NCBI GenBank assembly: GCA_965219025.1 | Contig: OZ244716.1 | Location: forward strand, 1,612,419 to 1,676,418 | Length of the DNA stretch: 64,000 nt | Source of the DNA: Dehalococcoidia bacterium | Lineage (GTDB): Bacteria > Chloroflexota > Dehalococcoidia > Lucifugimonadales > UBA2985 | Direction: 5' to 3' | Part shown: piece by piece, positions 760-58,757 of the stretch | Layout of the letters: each line of letters opens with the position of its first letter | How positions within the stretch are numbered: position 1 is the first letter of the stretch | Notes under the pieces: model-generated | What the model saw: the letters and a program-made list of their open reading frames with translations, nothing else | The model's database searches: none | Told to the model about the DNA's origin: nothing | Made by a program: the position numbers and the translations under genes

Positions 760-1653
760 CTATGCGCCGGGTGCCATGGTCCTGATCAGCTCCGGGCGAA
801 TTCGCTCCATGATCTCGGCGATGTGGAAGTGGCGATTCAGCACGTAGAAGTGAATACCGGCCACGTCGTGCTCCAGCAGGTCTGAGGCCTGCTCGGCCGT
901 GTGTGATATGCCCACTTCGTGGACTCGCTCCTCATCATCGCCCGCCTCCTCCAGCCGCCGCATGAGGCCCGCGGGGATGGTTGCGCCGCACATGCCGGTG
1001 ATGCGCTTGATCTGGTCCACGTTCAGTATCGGCATCAGCCCGGCGACAATTGGCTGACGAATGCCGATGGCGCGGCACCTTTCCACGAAGCTGTAGAAGT
1101 CCCGATTGTCGTAGAAGAGCTGGGTGATGATCACATCCGCACCGCTGTCCACCTTGAGCTTGAGGTTGTGCAGATCGGTCTCGGAATCGGGGGCCTCCTG
1201 GTGCGTTTCCGGGTAGCCGGCGACGGCGATTCCGAATCCCCCGTGGCGTTTCACGTGCTCAACCAGCTCGTAGCCGTGGCGGTAACCGTCGGGGCGCGGC
1301 GTGAAGGTGGACTCGCCGCGTGGCGGGTCGCCGCGCAGCGCCACGATGTTCTCGATGTTCTGCGCCTGGATTTCGTCGAGCAACCGGTCGATGTCGTCGC
1401 GGCCTGCGCCAACGCAGGTGAGGTGGTGTGCCGTCTCCATGCCAAGGCCGTTCTTGATCAGGGACGCCACCTCCAGAGTACGCTCGCGGGTGCTGCCCAT
1501 GGCGCCATAGGTGACCGTCAAGAGCGAAGGCCCCAGCCGTAGGAGCCTCGGAATCCGCTCCTCCAGCTCGGCCATTGAGGCCTGAGTGCGTGGCGGGAAC
1601 AGCTCGAAGGAAATTGCCGGCTGGCTGGTCCCGTACACGTCAGGAAACTTCAT
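760..1653 (-). CDS. metF: methylenetetrahydrofolate reductase
   Basis: 297 aa. ISFELFPP, LTVTYGA, HLTC and ALRGDPP blocks are characteristic of MetF. Confidence 0.9.
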   Translation of the reverse strand: MKFPDVYGTSQPAISFELFPPRTQASMAELEERIPRLLRLGPSLLTVTYGAMGSTRERTLEVASLIKNGLGMETAHHLTCVGAGRDDIDRLLDEIQAQNIENIVALRGDPPRGESTFTPRPDGYRHGYELVEHVKRHGGFGIAVAGYPETHQEAPDSETDLHNLKLKVDSGADVIITQLFYDNRDFYSFVERCRAIGIRQPIVAGLMPILNVDQIKRITGMCGATIPAGLMRRLEEAGDDEERVHEVGISHTAEQASDLLEHDVAGIHFYVLNRHFHIAEIMERIRPELIRTMAPGA

Positions 1654-1704
1654 TGCTGCTGCCCTTCGTTGCGTCGCATAGCCTGTGTTGCCGGGAACCG
1701 AACG

Positions 1705-2811
1705 CTACAGGAGCGCTCCCAGGATCACGCCTCCGGCGATGGCAGAGCCGAGCACTCCGGCCACGTTGGGCCCCATCGCGTGCATGATCAACCAGGTGTC
1801 GCTGTCTTCCTCCTGTCCCACCGTGTGGGCTACGCGGGCAGCCATCGGTACGGCCGACACGCCTGCTGCGCCTATCAGTGGGTTGATCTTCCGCCTGGAG
1901 ACCAGGTACATGGCCTTGCCAAGCAATACGCCGGAGACCGTGGCCACTGTGAATGCGAACAGGCCCAGAGCGAATATGCCCAGCGTGTGAGGCTCCAGGA
2001 ATCGGTCGGCCGTCATGGTGGAGCCGACGGTGAGTCCCAGGAATATGGTGGTGACGTTGATGAGCTCGTTCTGGGAGGCGCGGGCCAGCCGGTCCACAAC
2101 TCCGGCCTCTCTCAGTATGTTGCCGAACATGAGCATTCCCACCAGGGGTGCGGCCTTTGGCGCCACCAGGCTGGCCAGGATGATGACGATGATGGGGAAG
2201 AGGATCCGGGCCTTGTAGGAGGCGGTGCGGGAGGGATACGGCATCTTGACCTGGCGCTCGCGTCGGGTTGTGAGCAACCTCATGATGGGGGGCTGGATGA
2301 GCGGCACCAACGCCATGTAGGAATAGGCGGCGACGGCAATGGGGCCCCACAGGTCTGGGTCGGCAAGCTGCGTGGACACGAAGATAGTCGTTGGGCCGTC
2401 AGCTGAGCCAATGATGCCTATGGCGCCTGCATTGTTCAGGTCCCACCCGAGCAGCAGGGCGGCCATTATGGCCGCGAATATGCCGAACTGCGCCGCCGCG
2501 CCCAGGAGCACGGTGGTTGGGTTCTGTATGAGAGGCGTGAAGTCGGTGAGCGCGCCCACGCCCAGGAACATGAGGAGCGGGAACAGCTCGTTGTCCAGCC
2601 CGACCTTCCGCAGGATGCCCAGGAAGCCGTCATCTTCGGCGATGCCGGTCGCGGGAAGGTTGGCGAGAAGCACACCCAGGCCTATGGGCAGCAGTAGTAA
2701 CGGCTCGTACTTGCGGGCCAAGCCCAGGTATACCAGCAGCAGGGCAATGGCCATCATTGCGACCGCGCCCCACGTCAGGTCCGGGATTGCGCCGAGTGCC
2801 TCGCCGAACAT
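1705..2811 (-). CDS. sodium ion-translocating decarboxylase beta subunit (OadB/GcdB/MmdB family)
   Basis: 368-aa polytopic membrane protein. It has the family-typical N-terminus (LLLPIGLGVLLANLP) and a DNELFPLLMFLGVGALTDF block. Confidence 0.9.
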   Translation of the reverse strand: MFGEALGAIPDLTWGAVAMMAIALLLVYLGLARKYEPLLLLPIGLGVLLANLPATGIAEDDGFLGILRKVGLDNELFPLLMFLGVGALTDFTPLIQNPTTVLLGAAAQFGIFAAIMAALLLGWDLNNAGAIGIIGSADGPTTIFVSTQLADPDLWGPIAVAAYSYMALVPLIQPPIMRLLTTRRERQVKMPYPSRTASYKARILFPIIVIILASLVAPKAAPLVGMLMFGNILREAGVVDRLARASQNELINVTTIFLGLTVGSTMTADRFLEPHTLGIFALGLFAFTVATVSGVLLGKAMYLVSRRKINPLIGAAGVSAVPMAARVAHTVGQEEDSDTWLIMHAMGPNVAGVLGSAIAGGVILGALL

Positions 2812-2812
2812 G

Positions 2813-3367
2813 CTACGTCGCCCTCCCTCTGGATGAATGGTATGCGCTGTGAGTCCTGTGTCCGTAGGCAGGTGGTCTCCGCCCTTGGCTGCTCCACAGA
2901 GCGGCCCTGCCCATGTTGCTCCAGTTGCTCGTCAGCTCCGCGGGTTGCGGAGCCGCTTGCGATGCGGAAACCGGGACCTGGCCCGCGCCCGCTCGCTCGA
3001 ATTCCTCCTGCTCCATAGCCAGGTACACGGATACGGCGAGGGCAGCGACCTTTGCTCCGGTCACGCCGTCGCGAGGCGCCGTGACGGTCACAGGCGGTGG
3101 CGCCGGGGCCGGTGCGGGTGCGGGCGGCGGAGATGCCTCGACCTGGGGCGGCGCCTCAATGGGCGCGGGCGGCTCGGCGGCCGGCGCGGCGGCCTCATCC
3201 AGGGCCGCGGTCGACTGCGTCTCCGGCGCCTCGGCCTCTTCCACCTCTTCGCCCGGGAACAGCCTGCCGAGCGCGAAGAGGATTATCATCAGCGCAATCA
3301 GCGTTGAGAACACCAGGGCCATGCCCGCTCCGGCCAGCCTGAGGCCCTCAGCCAGCTCTGCGCTCAT
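2813..3367 (-). CDS. OadG-like decarboxylase gamma subunit with Ala/Pro-rich linker
   Basis: N-terminal single TM helix GMALVFSTLIALMIILFALGRLF typical of OadG. The gene abuts the beta subunit start, and its ATG overlaps the recO stop (ATGA at 3364-3367). Confidence 0.6.
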   Translation of the reverse strand: MSAELAEGLRLAGAGMALVFSTLIALMIILFALGRLFPGEEVEEAEAPETQSTAALDEAAAPAAEPPAPIEAPPQVEASPPPAPAPAPAPPPVTVTAPRDGVTGAKVAALAVSVYLAMEQEEFERAGAGQVPVSASQAAPQPAELTSNWSNMGRAALWSSQGRRPPAYGHRTHSAYHSSRGRAT

Positions 3368-4182
3368 GCGCGCCCTCCTCCGGTTGTGGTCTCGGCCAGC
3401 GCAGGGGCTGTTCCGCTCTTGTTACCCTGCGAAACCTGGCCAAGGAAACGAGTTCCCCTCGGTTCCCGGTCCAGGACGTACTGCAGCAGCGCCTCCATCA
3501 GGCGTCTCATCTCGGTCAGGGTCTCGTCGTCCAGTCGCAGCCTGACCGCGTCCTCGATGCGCTCACACCTCTGCAGGAATCGCAGAGCCTTGAGCGTGTT
3601 CAGTGATAGTGGTAGAACGGACACTCCCGGCGGGTGGCAGCCGTCGCAGATGCAGCCTCCCTGGCCCGGCGCGAAGCGATGGCGGCCCGGTTCCAGGGCC
3701 GTCTCGCACTCCACGCAGCGATGGAGCTCCGGCATGAACCCGCTGTGGCCGAGCAGCCTGAGCTGGAAGTGCGGCAGCAGGGCCGGCCCCGCCGAGTCTG
3801 CCAGCGATCGTAGCGTCTCCAGCAGCAGCCTGTAGACGGGGTAGTTGGCCTGGCCCTCCGGCGTTGAAGCGTCCACCAGCTCCGCCATGTAGATCGCCTG
3901 CGACAGCCTGTCCAGGTCCTCCCGGACGGCGCGGAAACCCTCCAGCACCTCGGCCTGCTGCACGGAGTCCATGCTCTGGCCGCGCGTCATGAGGAGCGAA
4001 GTGCGCATGAGAGGCTCCAGGTGGCCGCCCAAGCGGCTCTTGATCTTCCGCGCGCCCCTTGCGACGGCACGGAGTCTGCCCTGATTGGGCGTGTAGAGAG
4101 TGACAATGTAGTCGGCCTCTCCCAGCGGGAGGTGCCTGAGCACGATGGCCTCGGTCTTGTGAATGCGCGGTTGGGTGGTCAT
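3364..4182 (-). CDS. recO: DNA repair protein RecO
   Basis: 272 aa with an OB-fold N-terminus (EAIVLRHLPLGEADYIVTLYT..GRLRAVARGARK) and a C-terminal Cys cluster (CVEC...C.C..C). Confidence 0.9.
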   Translation of the reverse strand: MTTQPRIHKTEAIVLRHLPLGEADYIVTLYTPNQGRLRAVARGARKIKSRLGGHLEPLMRTSLLMTRGQSMDSVQQAEVLEGFRAVREDLDRLSQAIYMAELVDASTPEGQANYPVYRLLLETLRSLADSAGPALLPHFQLRLLGHSGFMPELHRCVECETALEPGRHRFAPGQGGCICDGCHPPGVSVLPLSLNTLKALRFLQRCERIEDAVRLRLDDETLTEMRRLMEALLQYVLDREPRGTRFLGQVSQGNKSGTAPALAETTTGGGRA

Positions 4183-4198
4183 GGCTATTGAGCAGGCT

Positions 4199-4813
4199 TC
4201 AGATCTCCTGCCGTCCCTCCAGGGCGCGGCTGAGGGTGACGGAGTCGGCGAACTCCAGGTCGCTGCCCACGGGCAGGCCTCGGGCCAGCCGGGTGACGTG
4301 TGCCACCAGCGGGGATAGCAGCCTGTGGACGTACATCGCAGTGCTCTCGCCCTCCAGGCTTGGGTTGGTAGCCAGAATCACCTCCGTGACCTCGCCGCTC
4401 CGGAGTCGCTCCAGCAGCTCGCGGATCCGCAGGTTCTCCGGGCCGATGCCCGTGGCAGGCGAAATCGCTCCGTGGAGCACATGGTACAGACCTCGATAGG
4501 CCTGCGTACGCTCCAGCGACAGCACGTCCAGCGGCTCCTCCACCACGCAGATTCGTGAGCGGTCCCGGCCCGTGTGCGAGCAGAGGTAGCATGGGCTCTC
4601 CTCCGTGATGTTCTGGCACACGCTGCAGAAGACGACCCTCTCCTTGACCGAGATGATGGACTCCGCCAGGGAGGTGGCCTCCTCTTCCGGCATGCGTATG
4701 AGGTAGTAGGCCAGGCGCTGGGCGCTCTTGGGGCCTATGCCGGGCAGCTTGTGGAACTCCTGTATCAGGCGTGCCAGTGGAGCCGCCACGGATGGAAGGA
4801 AATCGTAGGTCAT
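4199..4813 (-). CDS. recR: recombination protein RecR
   Basis: 204 aa with LPGIGPKSAQRLAYYL (helix-hairpin-helix), a C4 zinc finger (CSVC..C..C) and a Toprim region. Confidence 0.95.
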   Translation of the reverse strand: MTYDFLPSVAAPLARLIQEFHKLPGIGPKSAQRLAYYLIRMPEEEATSLAESIISVKERVVFCSVCQNITEESPCYLCSHTGRDRSRICVVEEPLDVLSLERTQAYRGLYHVLHGAISPATGIGPENLRIRELLERLRSGEVTEVILATNPSLEGESTAMYVHRLLSPLVAHVTRLARGLPVGSDLEFADSVTLSRALEGRQEI

Positions 4814-4859
4814 GAGGTTATCCGGGCAGTAGTCTCTTGTCTCCGCGTGTCCTGGATTT

Positions 4860-5165
4860 CTACGTCAGCCCCGGTATCTTGAATCCGCCGGTAATGGCTG
4901 AAATGCTGTTCTGGGCCATGGCTTGGGCCTTTTCGAGCGCCTCGTTGGTGGCAGCCGTCACGAGGTCCTGGAGCATCTCCACGTCCTCGCTGTCCACCAC
5001 CTCCGGCGCTATCTCTATCGAGCGTATCCTGAGGCTGCCGGTGATCACAACCTTGACTGCGCCGCCGCCTGCAGTGGCCTCCACCTCCGCGGTCTCCAGG
5101 TCCTCCTGGGCTTTGGCCAGCCGCGCCTGCATCTGCTGCGCCTGGCGAAGCATATTCCTATTCAT
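4860..5165 (-). CDS. ybaB: YbaB/EbfC family nucleoid-associated protein
   Basis: MNRNMLRQAQQMQARLAKAQEDL... is the family signature. The start is trimmed to the ATG at 5165, preceded by GGAGG. It overlaps the dnaX stop, giving the usual dnaX-ybaB-recR order. Confidence 0.9.
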   Translation of the reverse strand: MNRNMLRQAQQMQARLAKAQEDLETAEVEATAGGGAVKVVITGSLRIRSIEIAPEVVDSEDVEMLQDLVTAATNEALEKAQAMAQNSISAITGGFKIPGLT

Positions 5166-6828
5166 TCTGAGCCTCCTGAGTTCCGACTTCCTGGACAATC
5201 TGGGCGCCCATATTTCGCGCCGCCCGCACAAGGTGGCCCCTTGGTGCGTTTGGGCGTCCCGCGCCCTGGTCTGCAAGGGACAGGCGCAGGTTGTACTGGA
5301 CGCCCGTTACGTTTTTCACCGTATCTTGTATTTGCCTGCGGGCATCCGGGTTGTCTATCTCCTCCTGCAGCCTCTCCATGTTTGGCCGAGTCTTGAACTC
5401 CAGCACCAGTGTATCATCCTCGGTGTAGCGCCTGGAGCAGTCAAGCAGTAGAGCGCGGATGTTGTACTTGTTGGGTTTGAGGACGCGCGTGGCCTTGAGA
5501 AGGGCGTCCCACTGAGCCTCCGGCAGGCTGCCTTCAGCCGGTTCGATGTCCCGGTGAGCCCCGTTGCTTGCCTGTGCCTGGACTGCAGCCGGCCGCGGCC
5601 TGTCCTGCGAGACGTCCGCGTCCGAGGTCGAGCGGGCGTACCCGCCGGCCTGCGCGGGGGGTGCGGCGCGAGCGGGCGTGGCGGCCGGCGGCTGCTGCCG
5701 CGCGCGGGGCTGCGGCGCTGGCGGGGCAGGCTCCGGAGCGAGCGCCTCCGCCGGCGCCGGTTCCAGGCAGCATTCCAGTAGGGCCAGCTCCAGCGATAGG
5801 GTGGACGGCTCGTCCTGGCGTGGCGCAGCCTGCTCGAAGGCGCGGAGCGTTCTGAGGACGCGCTCCGCCGTGGCGCCCTGCGAGATCTCGGTCAGCGTCT
5901 GCGCCGCCTCAGGCGAATGCTCCAGCAGCTCGCGTGCGCCGGCGCTTATCAGCAGCAGGCCTCGCAGGTAGTCCTGTACCTGCCGGTGGAATCGCCGCAG
6001 GTCCAGGCCGCGCTCAGCCACGGAGCTGATGGTCATCAGTCCCTCCCTGGCGTCGCCGCGCAGTACGTGGCCAACGAGGGCCAGCGCAATCTCATCGTCG
6101 CCTATGCCCAGCATCTCCCTGACGTGGGCCAGGCTGACGTCGGAGTCGTGCGAGACCACCAGCTGCTCCAGCAGGTTCTCGGCATCGCGGAGGCTGCCTG
6201 AGGCGCTGCGCGCGAGAGCCTTGAGAGCCTGCGGCTCGGCGCGGATGCCTTCGCCGTCGCAGAGCTCGGCCAGGCGCCCCTCGATGTGCTCCTGGGACAG
6301 GCGGTGGAAGTCGAACCGCTGGCACCTGGAGACCACCGTGGCGGGCACCTTGTGCGCCTCCGTGGTAGCCAGTATAAAGATGGCGTGAGCGGGCGGCTCC
6401 TCCAGCGTCTTGAGCAGAGCGTTGAAGGCAGGCTCAGTCAGCATGTGGACCTCGTCCACGATGTAGACCTTGAACGCGCCCTCGGCGGGGGTGAAGTGCA
6501 CCTTTTCGCGCAGGCTGCGGATGTCGTCGATGCCGCGGTGGCTGGCGGCATCGATCTCGATCAGGTCCATGGACCTGGTCTCGTTGATGGCGGAGCAGGT
6601 GCGGCACTCGTTGCACGGCTCGCCGTCACGCGGCTCCAGGCAGCTGACGGCCTTGGCAAGAATGCGCGCGGTGCTGGTCTTGCCCGTGCCCCTTGGCCCG
6701 CAGAAAAGATACGCGTGCGCCATTCTGCCCTGCACGACGGCCTGCCGCAGCGTGCGGGTCACGTGCTCCTGGCCTTTCACGTCCGCCAACAGGCGGGGAC
6801 GCCACTTGCGATAGAATACCTGGGGCAA
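5158..6828 (-). CDS. dnaX: DNA polymerase III subunit gamma/tau
   Basis: 556 aa with Walker A GPRGTGKTS, a C..C..C zinc module, DEVHML and SRCQRF boxes, and an Ala/Pro-rich linker. Confidence 0.95.
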   Translation of the reverse strand: MPQVFYRKWRPRLLADVKGQEHVTRTLRQAVVQGRMAHAYLFCGPRGTGKTSTARILAKAVSCLEPRDGEPCNECRTCSAINETRSMDLIEIDAASHRGIDDIRSLREKVHFTPAEGAFKVYIVDEVHMLTEPAFNALLKTLEEPPAHAIFILATTEAHKVPATVVSRCQRFDFHRLSQEHIEGRLAELCDGEGIRAEPQALKALARSASGSLRDAENLLEQLVVSHDSDVSLAHVREMLGIGDDEIALALVGHVLRGDAREGLMTISSVAERGLDLRRFHRQVQDYLRGLLLISAGARELLEHSPEAAQTLTEISQGATAERVLRTLRAFEQAAPRQDEPSTLSLELALLECCLEPAPAEALAPEPAPPAPQPRARQQPPAATPARAAPPAQAGGYARSTSDADVSQDRPRPAAVQAQASNGAHRDIEPAEGSLPEAQWDALLKATRVLKPNKYNIRALLLDCSRRYTEDDTLVLEFKTRPNMERLQEEIDNPDARRQIQDTVKNVTGVQYNLRLSLADQGAGRPNAPRGHLVRAARNMGAQIVQEVGTQEAQNE

Positions 6829-6846
6829 CTTCCTGTCCTGCTCCTG

Positions 6847-7353
6847 TTACATGGGCACCCGGGCCAGCACGTCGTCCTGTACGGCCCACATGCGCTGCTT
6901 TTCGCAGTCGTCCGCGTGATCGTAGCCTAGAAGGTGCAGCACGCCGTGGACAACCAGCAGGGCCATCTCCGCCCTAACGAGCTTGCGGGCCTCTTTGGCC
7001 TGCCGCGCCGCCTGTGGGTAGGAGATGACGACCTCGCCCACGGGAGCGCTCGCCTCCGGTGGCAGGCCTTCGAGGCTGCCGTTGCCGCCTGATGCGGCGT
7101 CGTCCTCTTCGTACCGCGACTCCCAGAGCGGGAAGGCCAGCACGTCCGTTGGCTCGTCGAGCCCTCGGAAGTCCCGGTTGAGGCCGTGGACGGTCTCGTC
7201 GTCGGCGACCACCAGGCTGATGCAGAGCGGCGACTCCTCGTCCCGCACGTCCAGAGCAAGCTCCACCACATCCCGCAGCCAGGCCTTGGACAGCCTGCGC
7301 GAATACGGAGGGAACACCTGAACGTCAATGCTCCGGGAGGGGACTTGAGCCAC
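6847..7353 (-). CDS. ybeY: rRNA maturation endoribonuclease YbeY
   Basis: 168 aa with the C-terminal HGVLHLLGYDH zinc-binding motif. Confidence 0.9.
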   Translation of the reverse strand: MAQVPSRSIDVQVFPPYSRRLSKAWLRDVVELALDVRDEESPLCISLVVADDETVHGLNRDFRGLDEPTDVLAFPLWESRYEEDDAASGGNGSLEGLPPEASAPVGEVVISYPQAARQAKEARKLVRAEMALLVVHGVLHLLGYDHADDCEKQRMWAVQDDVLARVPM

Positions 7354-7552
7354 GGGGCTACCTCACAACCTCAGTACAGTATCGACCGCGCCATCATATC
7401 ATAGGCGGTTTGCAAGCTACAAGAAAAGCGCAGCGGCCGTAGAGGCCGCCTCCATCGACTGGCGCGACCGCGCAGGCTAGAATGGAGGTGGACACACCAT
7501 CACAAGCGTCCGAGCGTCCGGACTCGGCGTTCGGCACGCGGAATTCAGGGCG

Positions 7553-9745
7553 TTGATCTCACTGCGAAACCGTCGCACCCCACTGCGAAGCGCCGCTAAG
7601 TGGCTCGCTCTGTCGCTGCTGGCCGCGCTTCCCGCCGTCGCCGGCTGCGAAGCTGCCGCCACGCCGGAGGTCGCAGTCATTGAGAAGGACAAGCCGGACT
7701 GGATAGAGGCCAGGCTGGAGACCATCAAGGTCATCTATAACCTAACGCCCGAGGGCGAGCGCTTCCTGGAGAAGCACGACCTCCGCTGGATGCGTGGCGA
7801 GCCGGGATGGTTCGGCAGCTTCGGCTACGACCGCTGGACGGGCGTTGGGGAGTCCCGCCTGGGGCCGATCATGCACGAGATGGGTCATGCCTACTGGGGC
7901 GCGTTCGAGGTCACGGGCCGCGCCGACCTGAGCTGGGATTACCCGGACGGCCGCCACGAGTCGTCGGCCATCCTGCAGCTCCACGCAGACCTGATCGCCT
8001 TCATGGCGCAGCCTCCGGACCCGTACGAGCCACTGCGCGAGCGGCTGCGCAACCTGCCGGATACACAGCTGGGCGACGAGTCCGGGCTGCTCCATTTCGG
8101 GGAGGCCGACCTCGTGCACACCACGGGCGGCAACGCCCTCCTGCTGCCGCCCATCCTGCGCAAGTACTTCGACGGCTACCTCACAGGCGGCTCGTTCGAC
8201 TCGTGGTACGAGGTACTGGAGTGGTACCAGGGCCTCACGCGAGAGGACGCCCGTGCGGCGGCCGTCTTCTTCGGACTCGACCACCTGGACTTCGATCTGT
8301 ACCGCGACCTGGAGCCAGCCAGGAGCATGTCGCTACCGGAGGGTATCGCCGCGCTGGTGGAGCGCGAGGAGAGGCAGAGGCTCCAGGATTTCGCGATTCA
8401 GTTTGATCTCGTCACGGGCCTGGAGGAGTTGGATGGCAGGCTCATTGCGCTGGAGCTGCGGTTTCTCCGGGGCTACCTGGAGGACAAACTGGCGCTCCAC
8501 AAGCGCTACCCGGACGCCCTGTCCGGCATCGCGGACGCGACGCCCGCGGCGGCCAGCCTGGAGCGAGTGCTGGATGCCTTTGCGGAGCTGGAGGGAATGC
8601 CGACGGACGAACGCGCCGACCTGCTGGCCTCCCGTATGGAGGAGCCGATCTTCTCGGTGTTCTGGCCGTTGGTGCGCGCCTCCACGATGATGGAGCTTCA
8701 CGCCCGCGGCATCCCCCCGCGAGACACCGAACCCGCAGAGCGCACTACGGACGTGGAGATCGAGAGGCTGGCGCGCGTGGCGGACTCTGCCACAACGATC
8801 CTGGGACGCGCCCGCGACGACCTGGACGTCGGTGTGCGGGACCTGGAGGCCCTGCTGCGCGACGTGCTGGAGCGGAACGACCGCGACGCCGGCCTCGTTC
8901 TCGAGCTGGCCCTTGCCGCGGACCGGGAGCTTGCGGAGCGGGTGGTGGTCCTCCTGGACCATGGCCTGTTGCGGGAGCTGCTCGCCGAGGAGCCGGGCAT
9001 TGTGCGGCAGCTCCTGGAGCCGGAGCAACTGCTGCCGCTCCTCGGAATCACCGCGGACGCGGACGCCGACGACCTGGCGAGCGGCATCCGCGAGCTGATG
9101 CAGGCCACGTCCGGCAACTACCGCACGGACCGGCCATACCTATCGACCGTGTACGAGCTGGTTGCGGAACGGGGCATGTCCAGGCCGGACGAGGCGCTTG
9201 AGGTGATGATTGAGTCGGGGCTGTTTATGGAGGTCATGCTCCGGGAGCGCCCCCGCGAGACGGTCGACATCCTGGCCTCCGACCTCGAGCGCGCGGCGGC
9301 GCTCATAGCCGAAACGACGGGCCACGGCCGGACGCCGCAGGGCATGATACACGCCGTCATCTTCGAGGAGCCGCTGCTGGCCGCCCGGCTGGTCGATATC
9401 TTGAAGGACACCCATTCAGAGGCGGCGCGGGAGGCGCTGGTCCAGTTCGCTTACGACTCGCATCGCAAGGCGGCGCTGCCATCGCTCAGAGTATCGCCGG
9501 AGAACGACGGCGTGTTCATATTGGCGCTGGCCGACCTGCAGGGCGACGGCCGCGTGTCGGAGACGATGGCCGGGGCTATCTCGGCCTACGAGGTGCTCGT
9601 GCGTGACGGGACGGCGCCGCAGGACTTCCTGGAGGCGTACGCGGCCACCCTGGAGGAGGCCGCGGCCGCGCAGTCCGCCGCGGAGGACGGCGAGAGGCTG
9701 CGGCAGATCGTGCGGGATGCGTTCGCGCTGGCGGGCGGGGGGTAG
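7553..9745 (+). CDS. hypothetical lipoprotein with a zincin-like HEMGH motif
   Basis: 730-aa ORF with a TTG start. It has a signal peptide plus lipobox (LAALPAVAGC) and a HEMGHAYWG motif about 105 aa in. The long Asp/Glu/Leu-rich helical C-terminal two thirds show no family I can name. Confidence 0.6.
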   Translation: MISLRNRRTPLRSAAKWLALSLLAALPAVAGCEAAATPEVAVIEKDKPDWIEARLETIKVIYNLTPEGERFLEKHDLRWMRGEPGWFGSFGYDRWTGVGESRLGPIMHEMGHAYWGAFEVTGRADLSWDYPDGRHESSAILQLHADLIAFMAQPPDPYEPLRERLRNLPDTQLGDESGLLHFGEADLVHTTGGNALLLPPILRKYFDGYLTGGSFDSWYEVLEWYQGLTREDARAAAVFFGLDHLDFDLYRDLEPARSMSLPEGIAALVEREERQRLQDFAIQFDLVTGLEELDGRLIALELRFLRGYLEDKLALHKRYPDALSGIADATPAAASLERVLDAFAELEGMPTDERADLLASRMEEPIFSVFWPLVRASTMMELHARGIPPRDTEPAERTTDVEIERLARVADSATTILGRARDDLDVGVRDLEALLRDVLERNDRDAGLVLELALAADRELAERVVVLLDHGLLRELLAEEPGIVRQLLEPEQLLPLLGITADADADDLASGIRELMQATSGNYRTDRPYLSTVYELVAERGMSRPDEALEVMIESGLFMEVMLRERPRETVDILASDLERAAALIAETTGHGRTPQGMIHAVIFEEPLLAARLVDILKDTHSEAAREALVQFAYDSHRKAALPSLRVSPENDGVFILALADLQGDGRVSETMAGAISAYEVLVRDGTAPQDFLEAYAATLEEAAAAQSAAEDGERLRQIVRDAFALAGGG

Positions 9746-53180: not shown

Positions 53181-54638
53181 CTAACCGCCACGCTCCGCCT
53201 CCTCGATCGAGCGTAGCGACGACCGTGCCTTGTGCAGCGTTTCCTCGTACTCGCTAGCCGGCACGCTGTCCGCCACGACTCCGCCGCCCGCCTGTATATA
53301 CGCCACGCCATCCTTTATCACCATCGTGCGAATGGTAATGGCCGTGTCCATGTTTCCGTTGAAGCTGAAGTAGCCCACCGCTCCACCGTACGGGCCACGC
53401 CGCTCGCCCTCCTGCTCCGATATGATCTCCATCGCGCGTATCTTGGGCGCGCCCGAGAGCGTCCCGGCGGGCAGGCAGGAGCGCAGCGCGTCGTAGATGG
53501 TTCGGTCGTCGCGCAGCCTGCCGCGCACCTCCGATTCGAGGTGCATCACATGCGAGTAGCGCACCACGCGCATCAAGTCCGTCACCTCGACCGTGCCAGG
53601 TTGCGACACGCGCCCAACGTCGTTGCGCCCTAGGTCCACGAGCATGATGTGCTCGGCGCGCTCCTTTTCGTCGACGCGCAGCTCCGCCGCCAGCGCCTCG
53701 TCCTGCTCGGCAGTGGCGCCGCGAGGACGCGTGCCGGCCAGTGGGAAGTTGTAGACCAGCCCGTCCTCGACGCGAACCAGCAGCTCCGGCGAGGCACCGA
53801 CGATGGAGAAGTCTTCCAGCGAGAGGTAGTACATGTACGGCGAAGGGTTGAGTGCCCGCAGCGCCCTGTACACGTCCAGCGGCGCCGCCTGAGTGGGCCT
53901 GGCCAGGCGCTGGGATGGCACAGCCTGTATGATGTCGCCTGCGTAGATGAACTCCTTGATTTGCTCCACCATCGCTTCGTATCGCTCGCGCGTCATGTTG
54001 GACGAGTACGATGGCGAGTCACCAGCGTCGGCGTCCAGTCGGGCGCGCCGCTCCACCGTGAGGGGCCTGTCGAGCATGGCGGCGAGTTGCTCGATGCGTT
54101 CGACCGCTTCCGCGTATGCCGTCTCCACGCTGCCGCCGTCGAGACGCACGTGGCTGACCACCTTGATCTTGTGGCGCACGTGGTCGAACACCAGCAGGGT
54201 GTCGACGAACATGAACACGGACTCAGGCAGGCCCAGTGGGTCGCTCGCAGGAGGAGGCACCGGCTCGTAGTAGCGGACTGCGTCGTACGCGACGTAACCT
54301 ACGGCTCCGCCGTGGAAGCGCGGCAGGCCCGGAATCGAGACGAGCGTATGCCGCCCGAGCTCCTCCTCGACGATCCTGAGAGGGTCCACCTCGCCGTGAG
54401 TCCGGCCCGGCCCAGTCGTCACAATCCTGTAGGGGCTCGCGCCGATGAAGCTGTATCGCGCAAGCTGCTCTCCGCCCTCGACGCTCTCCAGGAGGAATGC
54501 GTAGGGGCCCTGCGCGATCTTGAGGTACGCCGACACCGGCGTCTCCAGGTCCGCGTTAATCTCGCGGTACACGGGGATCAGGTTGCCGTGCTTCGATAGC
54601 TCCCTGACCTCTTCCAACGTTGGATAGCAATTGCTCAT
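53181..54638 (-). CDS. trpE: anthranilate synthase component I
   Basis: LLESVEGGE, GGAVGYVAYD and GAPKIRAMEII...RGPYGGAVGY blocks. The ATG at 54638 is preferred over the in-frame GTG at 54647. Confidence 0.95.
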   Translation of the reverse strand: MSNCYPTLEEVRELSKHGNLIPVYREINADLETPVSAYLKIAQGPYAFLLESVEGGEQLARYSFIGASPYRIVTTGPGRTHGEVDPLRIVEEELGRHTLVSIPGLPRFHGGAVGYVAYDAVRYYEPVPPPASDPLGLPESVFMFVDTLLVFDHVRHKIKVVSHVRLDGGSVETAYAEAVERIEQLAAMLDRPLTVERRARLDADAGDSPSYSSNMTRERYEAMVEQIKEFIYAGDIIQAVPSQRLARPTQAAPLDVYRALRALNPSPYMYYLSLEDFSIVGASPELLVRVEDGLVYNFPLAGTRPRGATAEQDEALAAELRVDEKERAEHIMLVDLGRNDVGRVSQPGTVEVTDLMRVVRYSHVMHLESEVRGRLRDDRTIYDALRSCLPAGTLSGAPKIRAMEIISEQEGERRGPYGGAVGYFSFNGNMDTAITIRTMVIKDGVAYIQAGGGVVADSVPASEYEETLHKARSSLRSIEEAERGG

Positions 54639-54680
54639 GCTCTGCACACTCCGGCGGACTCTTGCGCCCGCTCTCCTCCA

Positions 54681-54717
54681 GAATAACAGAAAGCCCCGCC
54701 CTTCAAGGGGCGGGGCT
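54681..54717 (-). terminator. intrinsic terminator of the T-box leader
   Basis: On the minus strand, AGCCCCGCCC-CTTGAA-GGGCGGGGCT is followed by TTCTGTTATTCT. It lies immediately 3' of the T-box sequence. Confidence 0.8.
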
Positions 54718-54980
54718 GGTCCGCGGTGCCACCCTTATTGCGAGAGCGGGGCATCCAATGCCCGTGCCTCTCGTATCTCGTCCGAGCCGTTCGAAGTCGG
54801 CTCGTGAGCCTGTAACGGGACTCTCCCGGCTCGGCCTACGACCCCTGCGATGGGGCCTTCGGCGTGCGGCTCCCGGGCCCATTCGACCTCTGCGCAGGCG
54901 CCGGCTCGCACCTTCCCCAGCTCTCTGAGCCCCGCTTGAGGCGTACTATCCCCGTTCGCAGCCTTTGGCTATGCGAAATG
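54681..54980 (-). promoter_or_regulatory. T-box riboswitch leader, Trp (UGG) specifier, controlling trpE
   Basis: On the minus strand the elements occur in canonical order. They are AGUA (K-turn region), CAGAGAG (AG bulge), CUGGGGAAGGUGCGA (distal loop), GAA-UGG-G specifier loop (UGG at 54879-54881), the T-box AAUAAGGGUGGCACCGCGG (54719-54739) and the terminator. Confidence 0.85.
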
Positions 54981-55045: not shown

Positions 55046-56475
55046 CATCTGTAACGGTTCAGTGAAAATGTCACCCTATGAAAGGTGCAACAGTGACACT
55101 GACCGAGAGGGAGCAACAGCGAGGCATGGTACTGAATCAGGTGGAACGGGACGGACTCACAGGGCAGCAGGCAGCAAGGCTGATGGGCTTGTCGGTTCGG
55201 CAGGTGCAGAGGCTTAGGGCTGCCTACAGGAAGGATGGTGTGGCTGCCCTGGCCCATGGCAATCGAGGACGATCACCGGTTCACCGCATTACCGACGAGA
55301 CCCGAAGGCAGGTGGTGGAGTTGGCCCATGGAACCTACCGGGGGTTCAATCACCATCATCTACAGGAGGAGCTGGCAGAGCAGGAGGGGGTGAAGCTGAG
55401 CCGCTCATCCCTGTGGCGCATCCTCACCAGGGCTGGTGTACCCAGCATCAGGAAGCGTCGCCGACCCCTGCATCGCCACCAGAGGCAGCGCTACCCCCAA
55501 GAGGGGATGCTGCTACAGATCGACGGCAGCCACCACCTGTGGCTGGAGGGCCGGGGACCCTCTCTCAGCCTGGTGGCTTTCATCGACGATGCCACCGGCA
55601 CCATCCCGGCAGCACTGTTCAGGGAACAGGAGGATGCCCACGGCTACTTCCTCGTGCTGCGGGAGACCATCACCACCAAAGGCCTACCCCTTGCCCTCTA
55701 CAGCGACCAGCACAGCATCTTCCAGGTGAACCCCAAGAAACAGGAGACCTTGGAGGAGCAACTGGCCGGGGAAAGGCAGCCCACCCAGTTTGGACGGGCA
55801 CTGCGGGAGCTGGGTATCCAGTCCATCGTGGCCCACTCACCCCAAGCCAAAGGCCGGGTGGAGCGGTTGTTCGGCACCCTCCAAGACCGCTTGGTCGGCC
55901 AACTGAGGCTGCGGGGAGCTTCCACCCTGGAGGAAGCCAACCAGGTCCTGGGAGACTACCTGCCCAAGTTCAACCGGGCCTTTGCTGTGCCTCCAGCCCA
56001 GGAGGGCACAGCCTACCGCGAAGCATCTGCCGGCCAGTTGGACCAGACCTTGTGCTTCAAGTACCCCCGCACCGTAGCCAGCGACAACACTGTCCGCTGG
56101 TACGCCACCACCCTGCAACTCCTCCCCGATGCCCACCGCACCAGCTACGCCCGGGCTAAGGTGGAGGTCCAAGAGCGTTTGGATGGCAGCCTGGCGGTCG
56201 TCTATCAGGGAAGCGTCATCAGCACAAGGGAGGCACCGCCTCAAGCCTCTGCCCTGCGAGCCCGCAAAGCTCCAAGGGCTGACATACCCAAAGAAGAAGG
56301 TACGACGGGTACGCCCGCCGTTCTTTCTTCCCCCTACCACCCCTCCCTACCACAGCCGCCCTCGAAGCACACCTCACATCCCAAACCCGGACCTAACCAT
56401 CCCTGGAGAAAGATACCCTCGGCGACAAAATCACTGAACCATTAGGCGGACATATTGACTGAACTACGACAGCTA
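55046..56475 (+). mobile_element. IS element, ISNCY-like (single DDE/rve transposase); ends approximate
   Basis: Imperfect inverted repeats: left ..CTGTAACGGTTCAGTGAAAATGTCACC (55049-55075) against the reverse complement of the right GGCGGACATATTGACTGAACTACGACAG (56445-56472). A second GGTTCAGTGA match lies at 56431-56440. No clear target-site duplication was seen. Confidence 0.6.
55078..56445 (+). CDS. ISNCY-family-like transposase (HTH plus integrase-core/rve DDE domain)
   Basis: 455 aa. The N-terminus LTEREQQRGMVLNQVERDGLTGQQAARLMGLSVRQVQRL..HGNRGR and the core LLQIDGSHH..FIDDATG..YSDQHSIF match the pattern I recall for ISNCY-type transposases. Confidence 0.85.
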   Translation: MKGATVTLTEREQQRGMVLNQVERDGLTGQQAARLMGLSVRQVQRLRAAYRKDGVAALAHGNRGRSPVHRITDETRRQVVELAHGTYRGFNHHHLQEELAEQEGVKLSRSSLWRILTRAGVPSIRKRRRPLHRHQRQRYPQEGMLLQIDGSHHLWLEGRGPSLSLVAFIDDATGTIPAALFREQEDAHGYFLVLRETITTKGLPLALYSDQHSIFQVNPKKQETLEEQLAGERQPTQFGRALRELGIQSIVAHSPQAKGRVERLFGTLQDRLVGQLRLRGASTLEEANQVLGDYLPKFNRAFAVPPAQEGTAYREASAGQLDQTLCFKYPRTVASDNTVRWYATTLQLLPDAHRTSYARAKVEVQERLDGSLAVVYQGSVISTREAPPQASALRARKAPRADIPKEEGTTGTPAVLSSPYHPSLPQPPSKHTSHPKPGPNHPWRKIPSATKSLNH

Positions 56476-56541
56476 AGCGGGGGTGACGATTGACTACACT
56501 TGGCCCTTGTGCTAGCTTGAACATCCTATGGAGGCAGTGAA

Positions 56542-57363
56542 ATGACTGAGAGTGGCGATGACTTCGCTTCCTCTGAACTTGCCTTTGTGATTCATCCGGC
56601 GGCCGAGTACGTGTCTGTCGACGTCCTACTCAATGCTCTTGACCATATTCGTCGCCTGCTCCGAGACGTTGACTACGCGATTCACGGCGGAAAATACCGG
56701 TCTCGGTGGGACGTGCGTAGGCTCCAGTCGAGCTCGCCCACTATTGCCGTTAGGCCAAGCGCAGCGAACGGGAATCGGCCCAGTGCCGTCCATGAGATAG
56801 GCGTTGGCTTACGCTTGGTGACTTCCGGTGTTGACTACCCACCGCCGTATTTTACCGAGCAGTCGCTTCTCAACCTCAAGGCGATGCGCCGGGTGTTTCG
56901 CGGAAGGGATTGCGCAAGATCAATTGCGGTGCAGGAAGACGGCGGGCAGGTGGCTTCAATAGGGAGTGACATCTCAGCCAAGGCGGAGCGTATACTCGGC
57001 GCAGGCTACCATAACCTCGGCGCACTGGAGGGAACTCTGGAGGCCATCAACGTTCACAGATCTCCAATCATAACCGTTTGGGACAGGGTCTACGGGTCGC
57101 CCGTACGTTGTTCCATACCACAAGAAGATGAGTGGATTTCCCGCGTCAAGGCGCTTCTAGGTAAACGGGTCCTAGTGTCCGGCGTGATTCACCACTTTGT
57201 GAACGGCACTCCGCGCTCCATTCGAAACATATCCAAGATTGAGGATGTCACGCCTGAGCAGCGTCTGCCTGAGGCGGAGTTCGGGTCAATTCCTGATGCC
57301 AAGGCCGCGGACAATCCGGCTGCATTCCTCCAGGCCGTAAGGGAGCCCTCCCGGGAGTACTGA
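56542..57363 (+). CDS. hypothetical 273-aa protein, upstream partner of the PIN gene
   Basis: GGAGG RBS 7 nt upstream, and the stop overlaps the PIN ATG (TGATG). No HTH/RHH/AbrB-type motif recognised. GC about 55% on a sampled line. Confidence 0.65.
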   Translation: MTESGDDFASSELAFVIHPAAEYVSVDVLLNALDHIRRLLRDVDYAIHGGKYRSRWDVRRLQSSSPTIAVRPSAANGNRPSAVHEIGVGLRLVTSGVDYPPPYFTEQSLLNLKAMRRVFRGRDCARSIAVQEDGGQVASIGSDISAKAERILGAGYHNLGALEGTLEAINVHRSPIITVWDRVYGSPVRCSIPQEDEWISRVKALLGKRVLVSGVIHHFVNGTPRSIRNISKIEDVTPEQRLPEAEFGSIPDAKAADNPAAFLQAVREPSREY

Positions 57364-57833
57364 TGCCCGCCGCCAGACGACTATGGGACTCATCAGTTAT
57401 CCTCGGCTACCTTGCCGGCTATGCCGGACTGAGAGACGACTGTCAGGCAATCCTTGCACAGGCTGAGCGCGGTGAGATCGAAATAGTAGTGTCTGCGATG
57501 GCGGCTGTCGAAGTGGCATATTTGCACGGCGCCAACGACCAGGATGCAGAGAACCGGATACGTGAGTTTCTCGGACGCCGATTCGTCATCCCTGTGGCGA
57601 TAGACGTGCGCCTGGCTGCTGTGGCAAGGGAGCTTGTGAGGCGGTATCGGAACACTCCAACCCTGAGACCTGCCGACGCGATCCACCTTGCCACTGCGAT
57701 CCAGCTTGGAATTCCCATCATGGAGACGACGGATGAGGGTCTACTGAGATTCGACGGGCGAGAAGGGACGCCTCCCGTGAGAATTCGCCGCCCGCTCTAT
57801 GAGGGAACGCCTCCATTGCCCGGCTTTTTGTAG
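57363..57833 (+). CDS. PIN-domain ribonuclease (VapC-like toxin)
   Basis: 156 aa. The conserved acidic positions sit in WDSSVILGYL, AVEVAY, PADAIHLATA and METTD contexts. Confidence 0.85.
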   Translation: MPAARRLWDSSVILGYLAGYAGLRDDCQAILAQAERGEIEIVVSAMAAVEVAYLHGANDQDAENRIREFLGRRFVIPVAIDVRLAAVARELVRRYRNTPTLRPADAIHLATAIQLGIPIMETTDEGLLRFDGREGTPPVRIRRPLYEGTPPLPGFL

Positions 57834-57932: not shown

Positions 57933-58007
57933 GCGGGAGTAGCTCAGCGGTAGAGCTCCGCCCTTCCAAGGCGGACGTCGTGGGTTCGAATCCCATCTCC
58001 CGCTCCA
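57933..58007 (+). tRNA. tRNA-Gly (anticodon TCC)
   Basis: Cloverleaf folded by hand: acceptor GCGGGAG/CTCCCGC, D stem GCTC/GAGC, anticodon stem CCGCC/GGCGG with loop CTTCCAA, T arm GTGGG-TTCGAAT-CCCAT, and an encoded CCA. Confidence 0.9.
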
Positions 58008-58043: not shown

Positions 58044-58757
58044 ATGACGTCCCCCAAGCGAGCCAAACGCGCCGCGTCTCACAAGAGCGACGCAGATCAC
58101 ACACCATCCATCACCTCCCGCGATGCGCTCCTGATGCTGGAGGCCGAGCAAGGCCCCGTCGAGTGGGAGCCGCGGTTCGATGCGGTGTCCGAGCTGGTGT
58201 TCACCATCCTCTCGCAGCACAACTCGGACGTGAACGCGCTGCGGGCCTACGACAGCCTCAGCGACGCGTTCGGCTCCTGGGAGACTGTGGCCGACGCCGA
58301 CCCGGACGACATTGCACGCATCATCTGGAACGGAGGCCTGTCCAGGATCAAGGCGCCCAGGATCAAGGCCGTGCTGCAGGACATCCTTGAGCGCCGCGGG
58401 TCGCTGGACCTGGACTTCCTGGGCGAGCTGCCTCTGGAGGACGCCAAGCAGTGGCTGCGAGAGCTCCCCGGAGTCGGTCCCAAGACAGCGGCCATCGTGC
58501 TGTCGTTTGCGCTGGGGATGCCGGCGATGCCCGTGGACACGCACATCCACCGCGTGAGCCGCCGCCTCGGCCTGATCGGACCCAAGGTGACGGCCGATCA
58601 GGCCCACGACATCCTGGAGTCGTCCGTTTCACCGGAGCAGGTGTTTGCGTTCCACGTGCACCTGATTGCCCACGGCCGTCAGGTGTGCCGGGCGCGCCGG
58701 CCGCTGTGCGACAGGTGCGTGCTGCAGGATAGCTGTCCGTCTGCGTTTCGCGCGTGA
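58044..58757 (+). CDS. nth: endonuclease III / HhH-GPD DNA glycosylase
   Basis: HhH motif LPGVGPKTAAIVL, catalytic VDTHIHRV and a C-terminal 4Fe-4S cluster C..RRPLCDRCVLQDSC. Confidence 0.85.
   Translation: MTSPKRAKRAASHKSDADHTPSITSRDALLMLEAEQGPVEWEPRFDAVSELVFTILSQHNSDVNALRAYDSLSDAFGSWETVADADPDDIARIIWNGGLSRIKAPRIKAVLQDILERRGSLDLDFLGELPLEDAKQWLRELPGVGPKTAAIVLSFALGMPAMPVDTHIHRVSRRLGLIGPKVTADQAHDILESSVSPEQVFAFHVHLIAHGRQVCRARRPLCDRCVLQDSCPSAFRA

Follow-up and report, generated by a model that had tools for sequence, protein, structure and literature searches.

A pair of adjoining forward-strand genes in a 64,000-nt stretch of the Dehalococcoidia contig OZ244716.1 (the window) probably forms a co-inherited toxin–neutraliser module, namely a non-canonical VapC toxin–neutraliser or defence module. 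The upstream open reading frame (ORF), gene A (56542..57363, ATG start), encodes a 273-aa member of an unnamed protein family and is the putative neutraliser or sensor of the downstream product. The downstream ORF, gene PIN (57363..57833), encodes a 156-aa VapC-type PIN-domain protein. The original prediction had raised the possibility of a non-canonical type II toxin–antitoxin (TA) or two-gene defence module, and this is supported by the linkage, the catalytic residues, the genomic contexts and the toxin-first decay described below; the mobile-cassette aspect is new.

The PIN protein was assigned to Pfam family PF01850 (E=1.3e-14, 55 bits against a cutoff of 23.6 bits). Its acidic tetrad was located at D9 (57387–57389), E50 (57510–57512), D105 (57675–57677) and D124 (57732–57734), in the respective contexts WDSSV, AVEVAY, PADAIHLATA and METTD, so that the acidic residues previously read in these contexts were all intact. 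They were also conserved across an alignment of 34 PINs adjoining A homologues in the comparison loci (given L-numbers here). E50 and D105 were invariant in this alignment, D124 was 97 % conserved and D9 was the usual residue, being replaced in four loci by E (L015, L017), N (L016) or C (L030). A profile of the partner PINs found a sole sequence relative in the PDB, the VapC 7BY2 (E=1e-4), with which the D, E and D residues aligned; the suspicion that proper alignment might leave the ORF without catalytic residues was therefore not borne out. No NCBIfam model matched the PIN, VapC models included, and it therefore belongs to a divergent VapC clade.

A word-indexed search found 84 close clusters of approximately 260 aa, all unnamed. 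When 1.84 billion representatives were searched exhaustively with a profile, 1991 matched at E<=1e-3, including 831 at E<=1e-10, again with lengths of approximately 260 aa. The family comprises approximately 2000 clusters at 50 % identity and has no name. In a scan of one genome per species, 34 A loci were detected, all in Dehalococcoidia metagenome-assembled genomes (MAGs). A PIN homologue lay directly 3′ of A in 33 of these 34 genome loci. In 32 of the 34 the gap between the A stop codon and the start of a downstream ORF ranged from −37 to +39 nt, the exceptions being L032 (192) and L033 (51). When the flanking ORFs were clustered over the genome loci, A and PIN were the sole genes common across loci.

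The same arrangement was found in distant members of the family. PF01850 was encoded immediately 3′ of A in a Gaiellaceae (Actinomycetota) MAG and in several unassigned contigs, at 25–40 % identity. The most divergent alignment (A2) contained no conserved peptide for metagenome and viral searches, and a subfamily alignment (A6) was used instead. This recovered 76 additional metagenome loci and no A homologue among the viral contigs; likewise, no homologue was found among the PLSDB plasmids with the window A and a Pseudomonas A as queries. For the metagenome loci with more than approximately 100 nt of sequence past A, PIN was present 3′ in all except L082 and L103. A PIN is therefore found 3′ of A in essentially every locus with sufficient sequence, and the conserved linkage on which the original prediction had made its case depend is present in other genomes.

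A census of 111 non-redundant loci found both genes intact in 78. Distance matrices for A against A and PIN against PIN were strongly correlated over 80 pairs (r=0.93, Mantel p=0.001), and the ratio of nonsynonymous to synonymous substitution (dN/dS) was 0.06–0.19 for A and PIN (0.06–0.12 for PIN) in five of the six pairs with measurable dS. The comparison of the window with L002 was saturated, and L010 and L014, which have hardly diverged from each other, yielded ratios of 0.39 (A) and 0.83 (PIN). The linkage of A and PIN is conserved, ancient and under purifying selection, and spans at least three phyla and subfamilies down to approximately 25 % identity. In the window the two genes share one base in a TGATG stop/start overlap (57361..57365; TGA at 57361–57363, ATG at 57363–57365), an arrangement that indicates translational coupling of A and PIN.

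Decay of the module was found to be asymmetric. In L009, L019, L023, L027, L029 and L036 an intact A was accompanied by a PIN that, within the contig, was cut short, interrupted or missing altogether, with L078 and L079 as possible further cases of PIN loss close to contig ends. The reverse, a damaged A with an intact PIN, was seen only in L065, as a single frameshift in a metagenome contig, and both genes were degraded in L032 and L033. As A is 1.75 times longer than PIN, random damage should favour A; with gene length allowed for, PIN-first loss in 8 of 9 cases gave a binomial p=0.002, and the conservative count of 6 of 7 gave p of approximately 0.01 by hand calculation. This polarity would be expected if PIN were harmful without A. 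The PIN remnant in L009 is cut to approximately 50 codons.

Protein A had no match above noise in Pfam, NCBIfam, PADLOC, PHROGs or the PDB, whether searched by sequence or by family profile, and scans of 10 distant and 55 diverse family members likewise found no known family above noise. The best sub-noise matches of the family were DUF4431 (E=0.004 over a 24-residue stretch, in 10 of the 55 members) and tRNA_anti (E=0.035–0.19). With only these two in the database scans of the window protein, the distant members and the 55 members, assignment of A to a known family was rejected. The original prediction had allowed that A might prove to be a known antitoxin or regulator; no such family was found in the five databases.

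The structure of A was predicted with AlphaFold2 using 35 homologues (pLDDT 85.6, pTM 0.78). In the model, residues 13–153 (56578..57000) form an alpha/beta region of the order beta-alpha-beta-beta-alpha-alpha, then beta-beta-alpha. The N-terminal 156 residues modelled separately reached a pLDDT of 87.6, and their best Foldseek match in the PDB was at E=0.1, to generic ferredoxin-like folds. No HTH, RHH, AbrB or Phd-like element was recognised in the N-terminal region from the models or by Foldseek, and no Pfam or NCBIfam model matched, in agreement with the earlier statement that A has no recognisable DNA-binding N-terminus. The idea that this region is a disguised DNA-binding domain was dropped, since it had no fold match in the PDB when modelled alone.

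Residues 156–235 (57007..57246) are predicted to form an OB fold (beta1-beta2-beta3-alpha-beta4-beta5), with a pLDDT above 90 and Foldseek support. DSSP assigned strands to residues 156–170, 176–181, 187–191, 209–218 and 224–235 and a helix to residues 196–204. Foldseek matches to the PDB were confined to this part of A and comprised the anticodon-binding OB domains of LysRS and AspRS, the RecG wedge, OBody and Teb1, at E values of 5e-4 to 7e-3; at the sequence level, some members of the family gave weak, sub-threshold matches to Pfam tRNA_anti. The small beta-rich module that had been suspected in the C-terminal third of A is thus recovered as a predicted OB topology.

The remainder of A, residues 236–273 (57247..57360), is a low-confidence tail (pLDDT 44–65) with the motif LP-x-A-x-FGSIPD, present throughout the family, followed by a short helix ending in R267. 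Residues 236–252 are disordered in the model and 253–267 form the low-confidence helix. The tail is among the most conserved segments of A: the close family shows no variation at A245, F247, G248, S249 and I250, conservation of 90 % or more at P251 and D252, and near-invariance at R267. The pattern LP...G-x-x-P-D...[YF][LV]xxxR is kept in branches of approximately 25 % identity and in Pseudomonas. From its conservation and its modelled state, the tail is proposed as the PIN-binding segment. Two individual members of the family were also noted. The 354-aa member P0208 has the OB fold and tail duplicated in tandem, with an apparently truncated N-terminus. The member P0319 (JGI) carries the source name ‘fructose 1,6-bisphosphatase’, probably an annotation error, as all other named members of the family are called ‘hypothetical protein’.

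From the sequences we infer PIN toxicity, neutralisation via the tail, nucleic-acid binding by A and a biological role for the pair, as follows. PIN would be a VapC-like ribonuclease and the toxic effector, and A would be the cognate partner that holds the nuclease inactive. Most plausibly, the disordered tail of A (LPxAxFGSIPD) and the short helix with its Arg would fold over the active-site face of PIN, where R267 may act in Mg2+ displacement, a role that Arg plays in several VapB proteins (summarised in PMC13373217). The OB fold and alpha/beta region would stand in for the small DNA-binding domain found in VapB and would probably bind nucleic acid, be it the operator or a trigger.

VapC/PIN proteins are the most abundant TA toxins and, to our knowledge, almost all that have been characterised pair with small DNA-binding antitoxins. 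Like VapBC, the present pair has a downstream VapC-type PIN with the acidic tetrad, an upstream partner gene that overlaps the toxin start, carriage on mobile elements, foreign GC content, a toxin that decays before its partner, and a conserved C-terminal tail in the partner that is disordered alone, as VapB C-termini are. It differs from VapBC in that the partner is approximately 260–280 aa rather than the 70–100 aa of VapB and has an unmatched alpha/beta region and an OB fold instead of an RHH, AbrB, Phd/YefM, HTH or MerR domain. A further difference is that A is absent from Pfam, NCBIfam, PADLOC and PHROGs, and its PIN has no match to the NCBIfam VapC models. No paper on a PIN paired with an OB-fold antitoxin was found in the literature.

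The pair was found as cargo of insertion sequences (ISs) of the IS1595 family. In L035, L039/L040 and L044 a transposase with Zn-ribbon and DDE_Tnp_IS1595 domains ends 4–20 bp 5′ of A. Searches with tblastn and a transposase HMM detected this arrangement or its remnants in the Dehalococcoidia loci L017, L031, L030 and L022, the phage-like L036 and a dozen metagenome loci, the transposase-positive metagenome loci including L094–L100. An IS1595 transposase lay within 600 bp 5′ of A in 15 of the 73 loci for which 1.1 kb or more of upstream sequence was available, and five more cases were at contig edges. Transposase, A and PIN are jointly bounded by terminal inverted repeats (TIRs) with the common outer end GGTAATTAT-CC. 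Perfect 8-bp target-site duplications (TSDs) flank the elements of L017 (3866–6301, 2436 bp, CTTGAGTC), L031 (3909–6392, 2484 bp, TCTTAGGT) and L100 (2732–5736, 3005 bp, TAAGAGAA), and those of L035 and L044 match at 7 of 8 positions.

IS1595-family elements are known to make target duplications of 8 bp. The TIRs and 8-bp TSDs around transposase, A and PIN therefore indicate that these elements are transporter ISs (tIS) with A and PIN as passengers, a type of IS1595-family element with passenger genes described by Siguier, Gagnevin & Chandler (2009), as cited in PMC4611040 and PMC7986276. The relatives share with tIS the Zn-ribbon and DDE_Tnp_IS1595 transposase, the TIRs, the 8-bp duplications and the location of the passengers inside the repeats; the window copy differs in having neither transposase nor repeats, which it lost or never had. 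Two individual copies were observed alongside these elements. The L017 PIN (5780–6241), with a residue other than Asp at position 9, sits in the IS with a perfect target duplication. In L036 (3756–4768), a phage-like contig with NinG and DUF551 genes, the last 65–70 or so codons of an IS1595 transposase are found with an intact A (P0307) and no PIN, and this orphan A in a virus might represent either a decayed insertion or a decoy of the anti-toxin kind.

Carriage of PIN toxins by transposons has precedent in the Tn3 family, whose members carry type II TA pairs, including PIN toxins, beside their transposition genes, with a proposed role in stabilising the element or replicon (Lima-Mendez et al. 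2020, PMC7157771). The likeness lies in a PIN-toxin pair inside a transposon beside the transposition genes. The difference is that the carrier of A and PIN is a 2.4–3.0 kb DDE element of the IS1595 family with 8-bp TSDs, and that the Tn3 antitoxins, namely RHH_6, Phd/YefM, AbrB, ParD, HTH_37 and MNT, are small known families (PMC7157771). No report of IS1595 elements with PIN cargo, or of A and PIN as cargo, was found in the literature.

Other copies were located in defence-related regions. In four Dehalococcoidia genomes (L009, L010, L014 and L020, at approximately 1600–9600 in each) the pair lies inside a type I restriction-modification (R-M) locus, where hsdS and an ApeA-NTD/HEPN gene precede it and hsdR follows. 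It adjoins the genes for a type IIG R-M enzyme and MazE in L037, and a HicB gene in L045.

A search of annotated phages by tblastn with a distant A member identified Pseudomonas phage vB_PaeS_AV001 (L123, PQ349086.1), with the module at 2009–3368. Its 278-aa ‘hypothetical protein’ could be aligned to the A profile across 243 columns, the tail motif among them (hhalign 98.8 %, E=6e-17), and overlaps a 177-aa gene labelled ‘repressor protein’ whose product is a PIN (PF01850, E=2e-8). The GenBank label therefore looks like a misannotation. Relatives of the AV001 A protein, all labelled hypothetical, were found in P. aeruginosa, other Pseudomonas, Xanthomonas rydalmerensis and Dyella. In three Pseudomonas prophage backgrounds the pair is positioned just 3′ of a CI-like S24 repressor, with one short unannotated ORF (78–157 aa) between them, and the Xanthomonas copy occupies a chromosomal islet close to an H-NS gene. 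One of the Pseudomonas prophage pairs has the accessions XMP31955.1 and XMP31956.1, the latter being the PIN. The lambdoid phage and prophage loci of this branch are L123 (AV001), L124, L128 and L129. Neither A nor PIN of the Pseudomonas and Xanthomonas copies has an annotation in PHROGs; PADLOC gave no match to them at E<=0.1 and none to the window A and PIN at E<=1.

The R-M and defence islands, the prophage immunity regions, the IS cargo and the toxin-first decay all support a TA or defence reading of the pair. The cassette is carried by IS1595-family tIS in Chloroflexota and Actinomycetota, in the immunity regions of lambdoid Pseudomonas prophages and in R-M/defence islands, and on such carriers it would serve for addiction, for stabilisation or for abortive defence against phage.

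Several observations weigh against the interpretation of A and PIN as neutraliser and toxin. Their linkage and co-divergence would be expected of a non-toxic two-subunit enzyme as well. The substitutions of D9, one of them in the apparently recent transposition of L017, suggest that nuclease activity may be dispensable in some copies. The P0340/P0200 branch is without the terminal helix and Arg, so the placement of an Arg in the active site is not a universal detail. In addition, type II TA systems typically autoregulate, and no DNA-binding domain that would allow this can be recognised in A; the decay asymmetry comes from fewer than 10 loci, some of them metagenome assemblies.

The size and fold of A also raise the question of whether it acts as a sensor, for which VapKSC is one of the closest known systems. 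This anti-phage system consists of the kinase VapK, the STAS-domain antitoxin VapS and VapC; VapC is held by the globular, non-DNA-binding VapS, the C-terminal helix of which comes close to the active site, and is released by sensing of single-stranded DNA (ssDNA) (EMBO J 2026, PMC13373217). A VapC restrained in this way is a precedent for the proposed action of A. Both systems have a VapC-family nuclease and a globular partner with a C-terminal helix, which in A is predicted. The present system differs in having two genes, in lacking both a GHKL kinase gene and a STAS domain, and in a partner that combines an OB fold with a novel domain. VapKSC features were looked for at the window locus: the neighbours are an ISNCY transposase and a tRNA-Gly gene, A has no STAS match and no sequence relationship was detected. 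As both the STAS domain and the kinase are absent, A and PIN are an analogue of VapKSC and not a member.

One tentative extension of the toxin–neutraliser interpretation is that sensor and antitoxin are fused in A: its OB fold, together with the novel N-terminal domain, would bind a nucleic-acid signal directly, and binding would pull the tail off the PIN active site. Candidate signals, put forward with the same reserve, would be ssDNA or RNA from phage replication, from DNA damage, or from transposition or excision of the element itself. If this were true, the pair would be a protease-independent, ligand-triggered VapC system serving as self-contained immunity or anti-loss cargo of ISs and prophages. 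It would also be a one-protein counterpart of VapK and VapS and the first defined TA/defence cargo of a simple IS family.

A related possibility, to which we give some but limited credence, is a sensor-effector defence system, in which the OB fold of A would sense a phage or DNA-damage product (ssDNA or RNA) and free or activate PIN, leading to abortive infection. It overlaps with the toxin–neutraliser explanation and differs from it in the role of the globular part of A and in the trigger of the nuclease; it is compatible with all observations. In its favour, the OB fold resembles ssDNA- and RNA-binding OB domains, and A is approximately three times the size of a canonical VapB, with a globular part conserved across phyla. 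The placement of copies in a prophage immunity region, in an R-M island and beside an ApeA-HEPN neighbour is typical of defence, and VapKSC provides an example of a VapC wired to ssDNA sensing. On the other hand, neither A nor PIN matches PADLOC, OB folds are generic, with nucleic-acid binding by A predicted from the fold, and most Dehalococcoidia copies lie among housekeeping genes.

A structural comparison has also been taken as bearing on a defence function. The full-length A model resembles phage proteins in Foldseek, matching a phage DUF6575 protein at E=5e-9 and two other phage proteins over most of its length, and DUF6575 occurs in an experimentally selected Escherichia coli defence system (Vassallo et al. 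2022, PMC9519451). However, the TM-scores are 0.39–0.43 and the root-mean-square deviations 10–14 Å (0.39 and 13.6 Å for the DUF6575 comparison), none of 55 A-family members matches Pfam DUF6575 and there is no PADLOC match. With its purely structural basis and no sequence support, the resemblance is better regarded as a lead than as a relationship.

It is improbable that A and PIN form a non-toxic two-subunit RNA-processing enzyme, in which A, as an RNA-binding specificity subunit, would bring PIN to a particular substrate, for instance the precursor of a tRNA or rRNA, by analogy with fused PIN+TRAM or PIN+OB/S1 proteins. Such an enzyme would account for the tRNA anticodon-binding domains of LysRS and AspRS as the best OB matches, for the tight coupling, co-divergence and purifying selection, and for the position of the window copy beside tRNA-Gly and a T-box/trpE locus. 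It sits poorly with the patchy mobile distribution over IS cargo, prophages and islands, the unconserved flanks and the foreign composition. Preferential loss of PIN while A persists would be unexpected if A served PIN only, and adjacency to tRNA-Gly is restricted to the window and L001.

That A and PIN are accessory genes of IS1595-family transposition, acting on transposase mRNA or intermediates and surviving elsewhere as decaying relics, is very improbable: transposase, A and PIN do share TIRs and TSDs with a transposase-to-A gap of 4–20 bp in L035, L039 and L044, and the association recurs in very divergent A subfamilies, but approximately 80 % of loci with sufficient upstream sequence have no transposase and yet keep both ORFs intact under purifying selection (dN/dS approximately 0.1), the pair and a conserved candidate promoter of its own are retained in seven syntenic Dehalococcoidia genomes, no IS carries the copies in Pseudomonas and Xanthomonas and, as far as we know, most IS1595-family elements need no genes like A and PIN.

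The PIN toxin and the TA/defence logic are already known, and what appears to be undescribed is the A family, its architecture and the arrangement as IS1595 cargo. An entirely unannotated partner family of approximately 2000 clusters with a distinct architecture goes faithfully with a divergent VapC clade in Chloroflexota, Actinomycetota and Gammaproteobacteria. Should A prove to be a neutraliser, the known repertoire for PIN nuclease control would be broadened, and if the OB fold of A senses nucleic acid, the pair would be a compact model of trigger-coupled toxin release. Transposase, A and PIN within one repeat pair and fresh 8-bp duplications make a clear case of an IS with its own addiction or defence module, which bears on IS persistence and on the spread of defence genes. 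With its copies in P. aeruginosa prophages and phage, the family is open to direct experiments in a tractable host.

For the window copy, the ORF coordinates, the TGATG overlap and the GGAGG sequence read previously agree with the letters at every position. The predicted Shine–Dalgarno sequence GGAGG (56530..56534) is 7 nt 5′ of the A start codon, and a purine run of the GGAGG/GAGG type is present at the equivalent position in relatives. The original prediction had also proposed a promoter of the form TTGACT-17-TAGCTT upstream of the pair. The letters are present, as a −35-like hexamer TTGACT (56490..56495) and, after a 17-nt spacer, TAGCTT (56513–56518), which belongs to an extended −10-like element TGc-TAGCTT (56510..56518) that includes the palindrome GCTAGC. 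In an alignment of the window with L001–L006, TTGAC was invariant within diverged intergenic DNA, as was TGnTAGC[TG]T. Across these seven loci the combined pattern TTGAC[TC]-N-TGnTAGC[TG]T, with the extended −10 TG, was invariant and the remaining spacer had diverged. A consensus promoter scan of the window did not call the pair of hexamers upstream of A, as the −10 agrees with TATAAT at only 3 of 6 positions. The TGnTAGC element is a candidate promoter or operator, and the candidate promoter may double as an operator given the palindrome within it. A conserved promoter-like element was found only 5′ of A; a scan for an intrinsic terminator 3′ of PIN found none.

The GC content of A (57.5 %) and PIN (59.0 %) is below that of the window (63.9 %); a value of about 55 %, lower than in the core genome, had been suggested from a sampled line. 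GC content at third codon positions is 0.62 for A and 0.61 for PIN, compared with 0.84–0.86 for trpE and nth. These low values indicate that the pair is compositionally foreign. The window had no match to an HMM built from the associated IS1595 transposases and no match to the inverted-repeat end GGTAATTATCCCTTGACA at up to three mismatches, nor to a degenerate form of the motif. With neither transposase remnant nor repeat motif, the presence of IS1595 relics in the window was rejected. The window copy is best read as a stranded cassette with low GC content and its own conserved candidate promoter, without the IS1595 transposase and inverted repeats.

The pair is located between trpE with its T-box leader and tRNA-Gly(UCC). 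On one side are trpE (53181–54647, reverse strand) and the upstream T-box leader (54703–54968, reverse strand), a full-length match to Rfam RF00230 at 63 bits (gathering cutoff 93, E=1.3e-12). On the other side the tRNA-Gly gene with anticodon UCC (57933–58007) begins 100 bp past the PIN stop and is followed by nth (58044–58757). The trpE side is syntenic in the seven Dehalococcoidia genomes, where the A proteins are 60–85 % identical, and the cassette has therefore been resident in this clade and inherited vertically. The start of the T-box leader and the trpE promoter account for a conserved block 5′ of A in L002–L006. A general role of tRNA-Gly as an integration site was rejected, a tRNA being nearby only in the window and L001.

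A complete-looking ISNCY insertion sequence (55052–56444; transposase 55078–56445, NF033594, E=1e-121) with 24-nt imperfect inverted repeats at 55052–55075 and 56421–56444 has inserted into the spacer that separates the divergent promoters of trpE/T-box and A. It was rejected as the mobiliser of the pair, as its inverted repeats close before the module. In the close relative L001 the equivalent gap is occupied by an IS256/Mutator-family transposase (L001 3729–4925). The ISNCY transposase in the window is therefore unrelated to the cassette, and the spacer between trpE and A appears to be an insertion hotspot.

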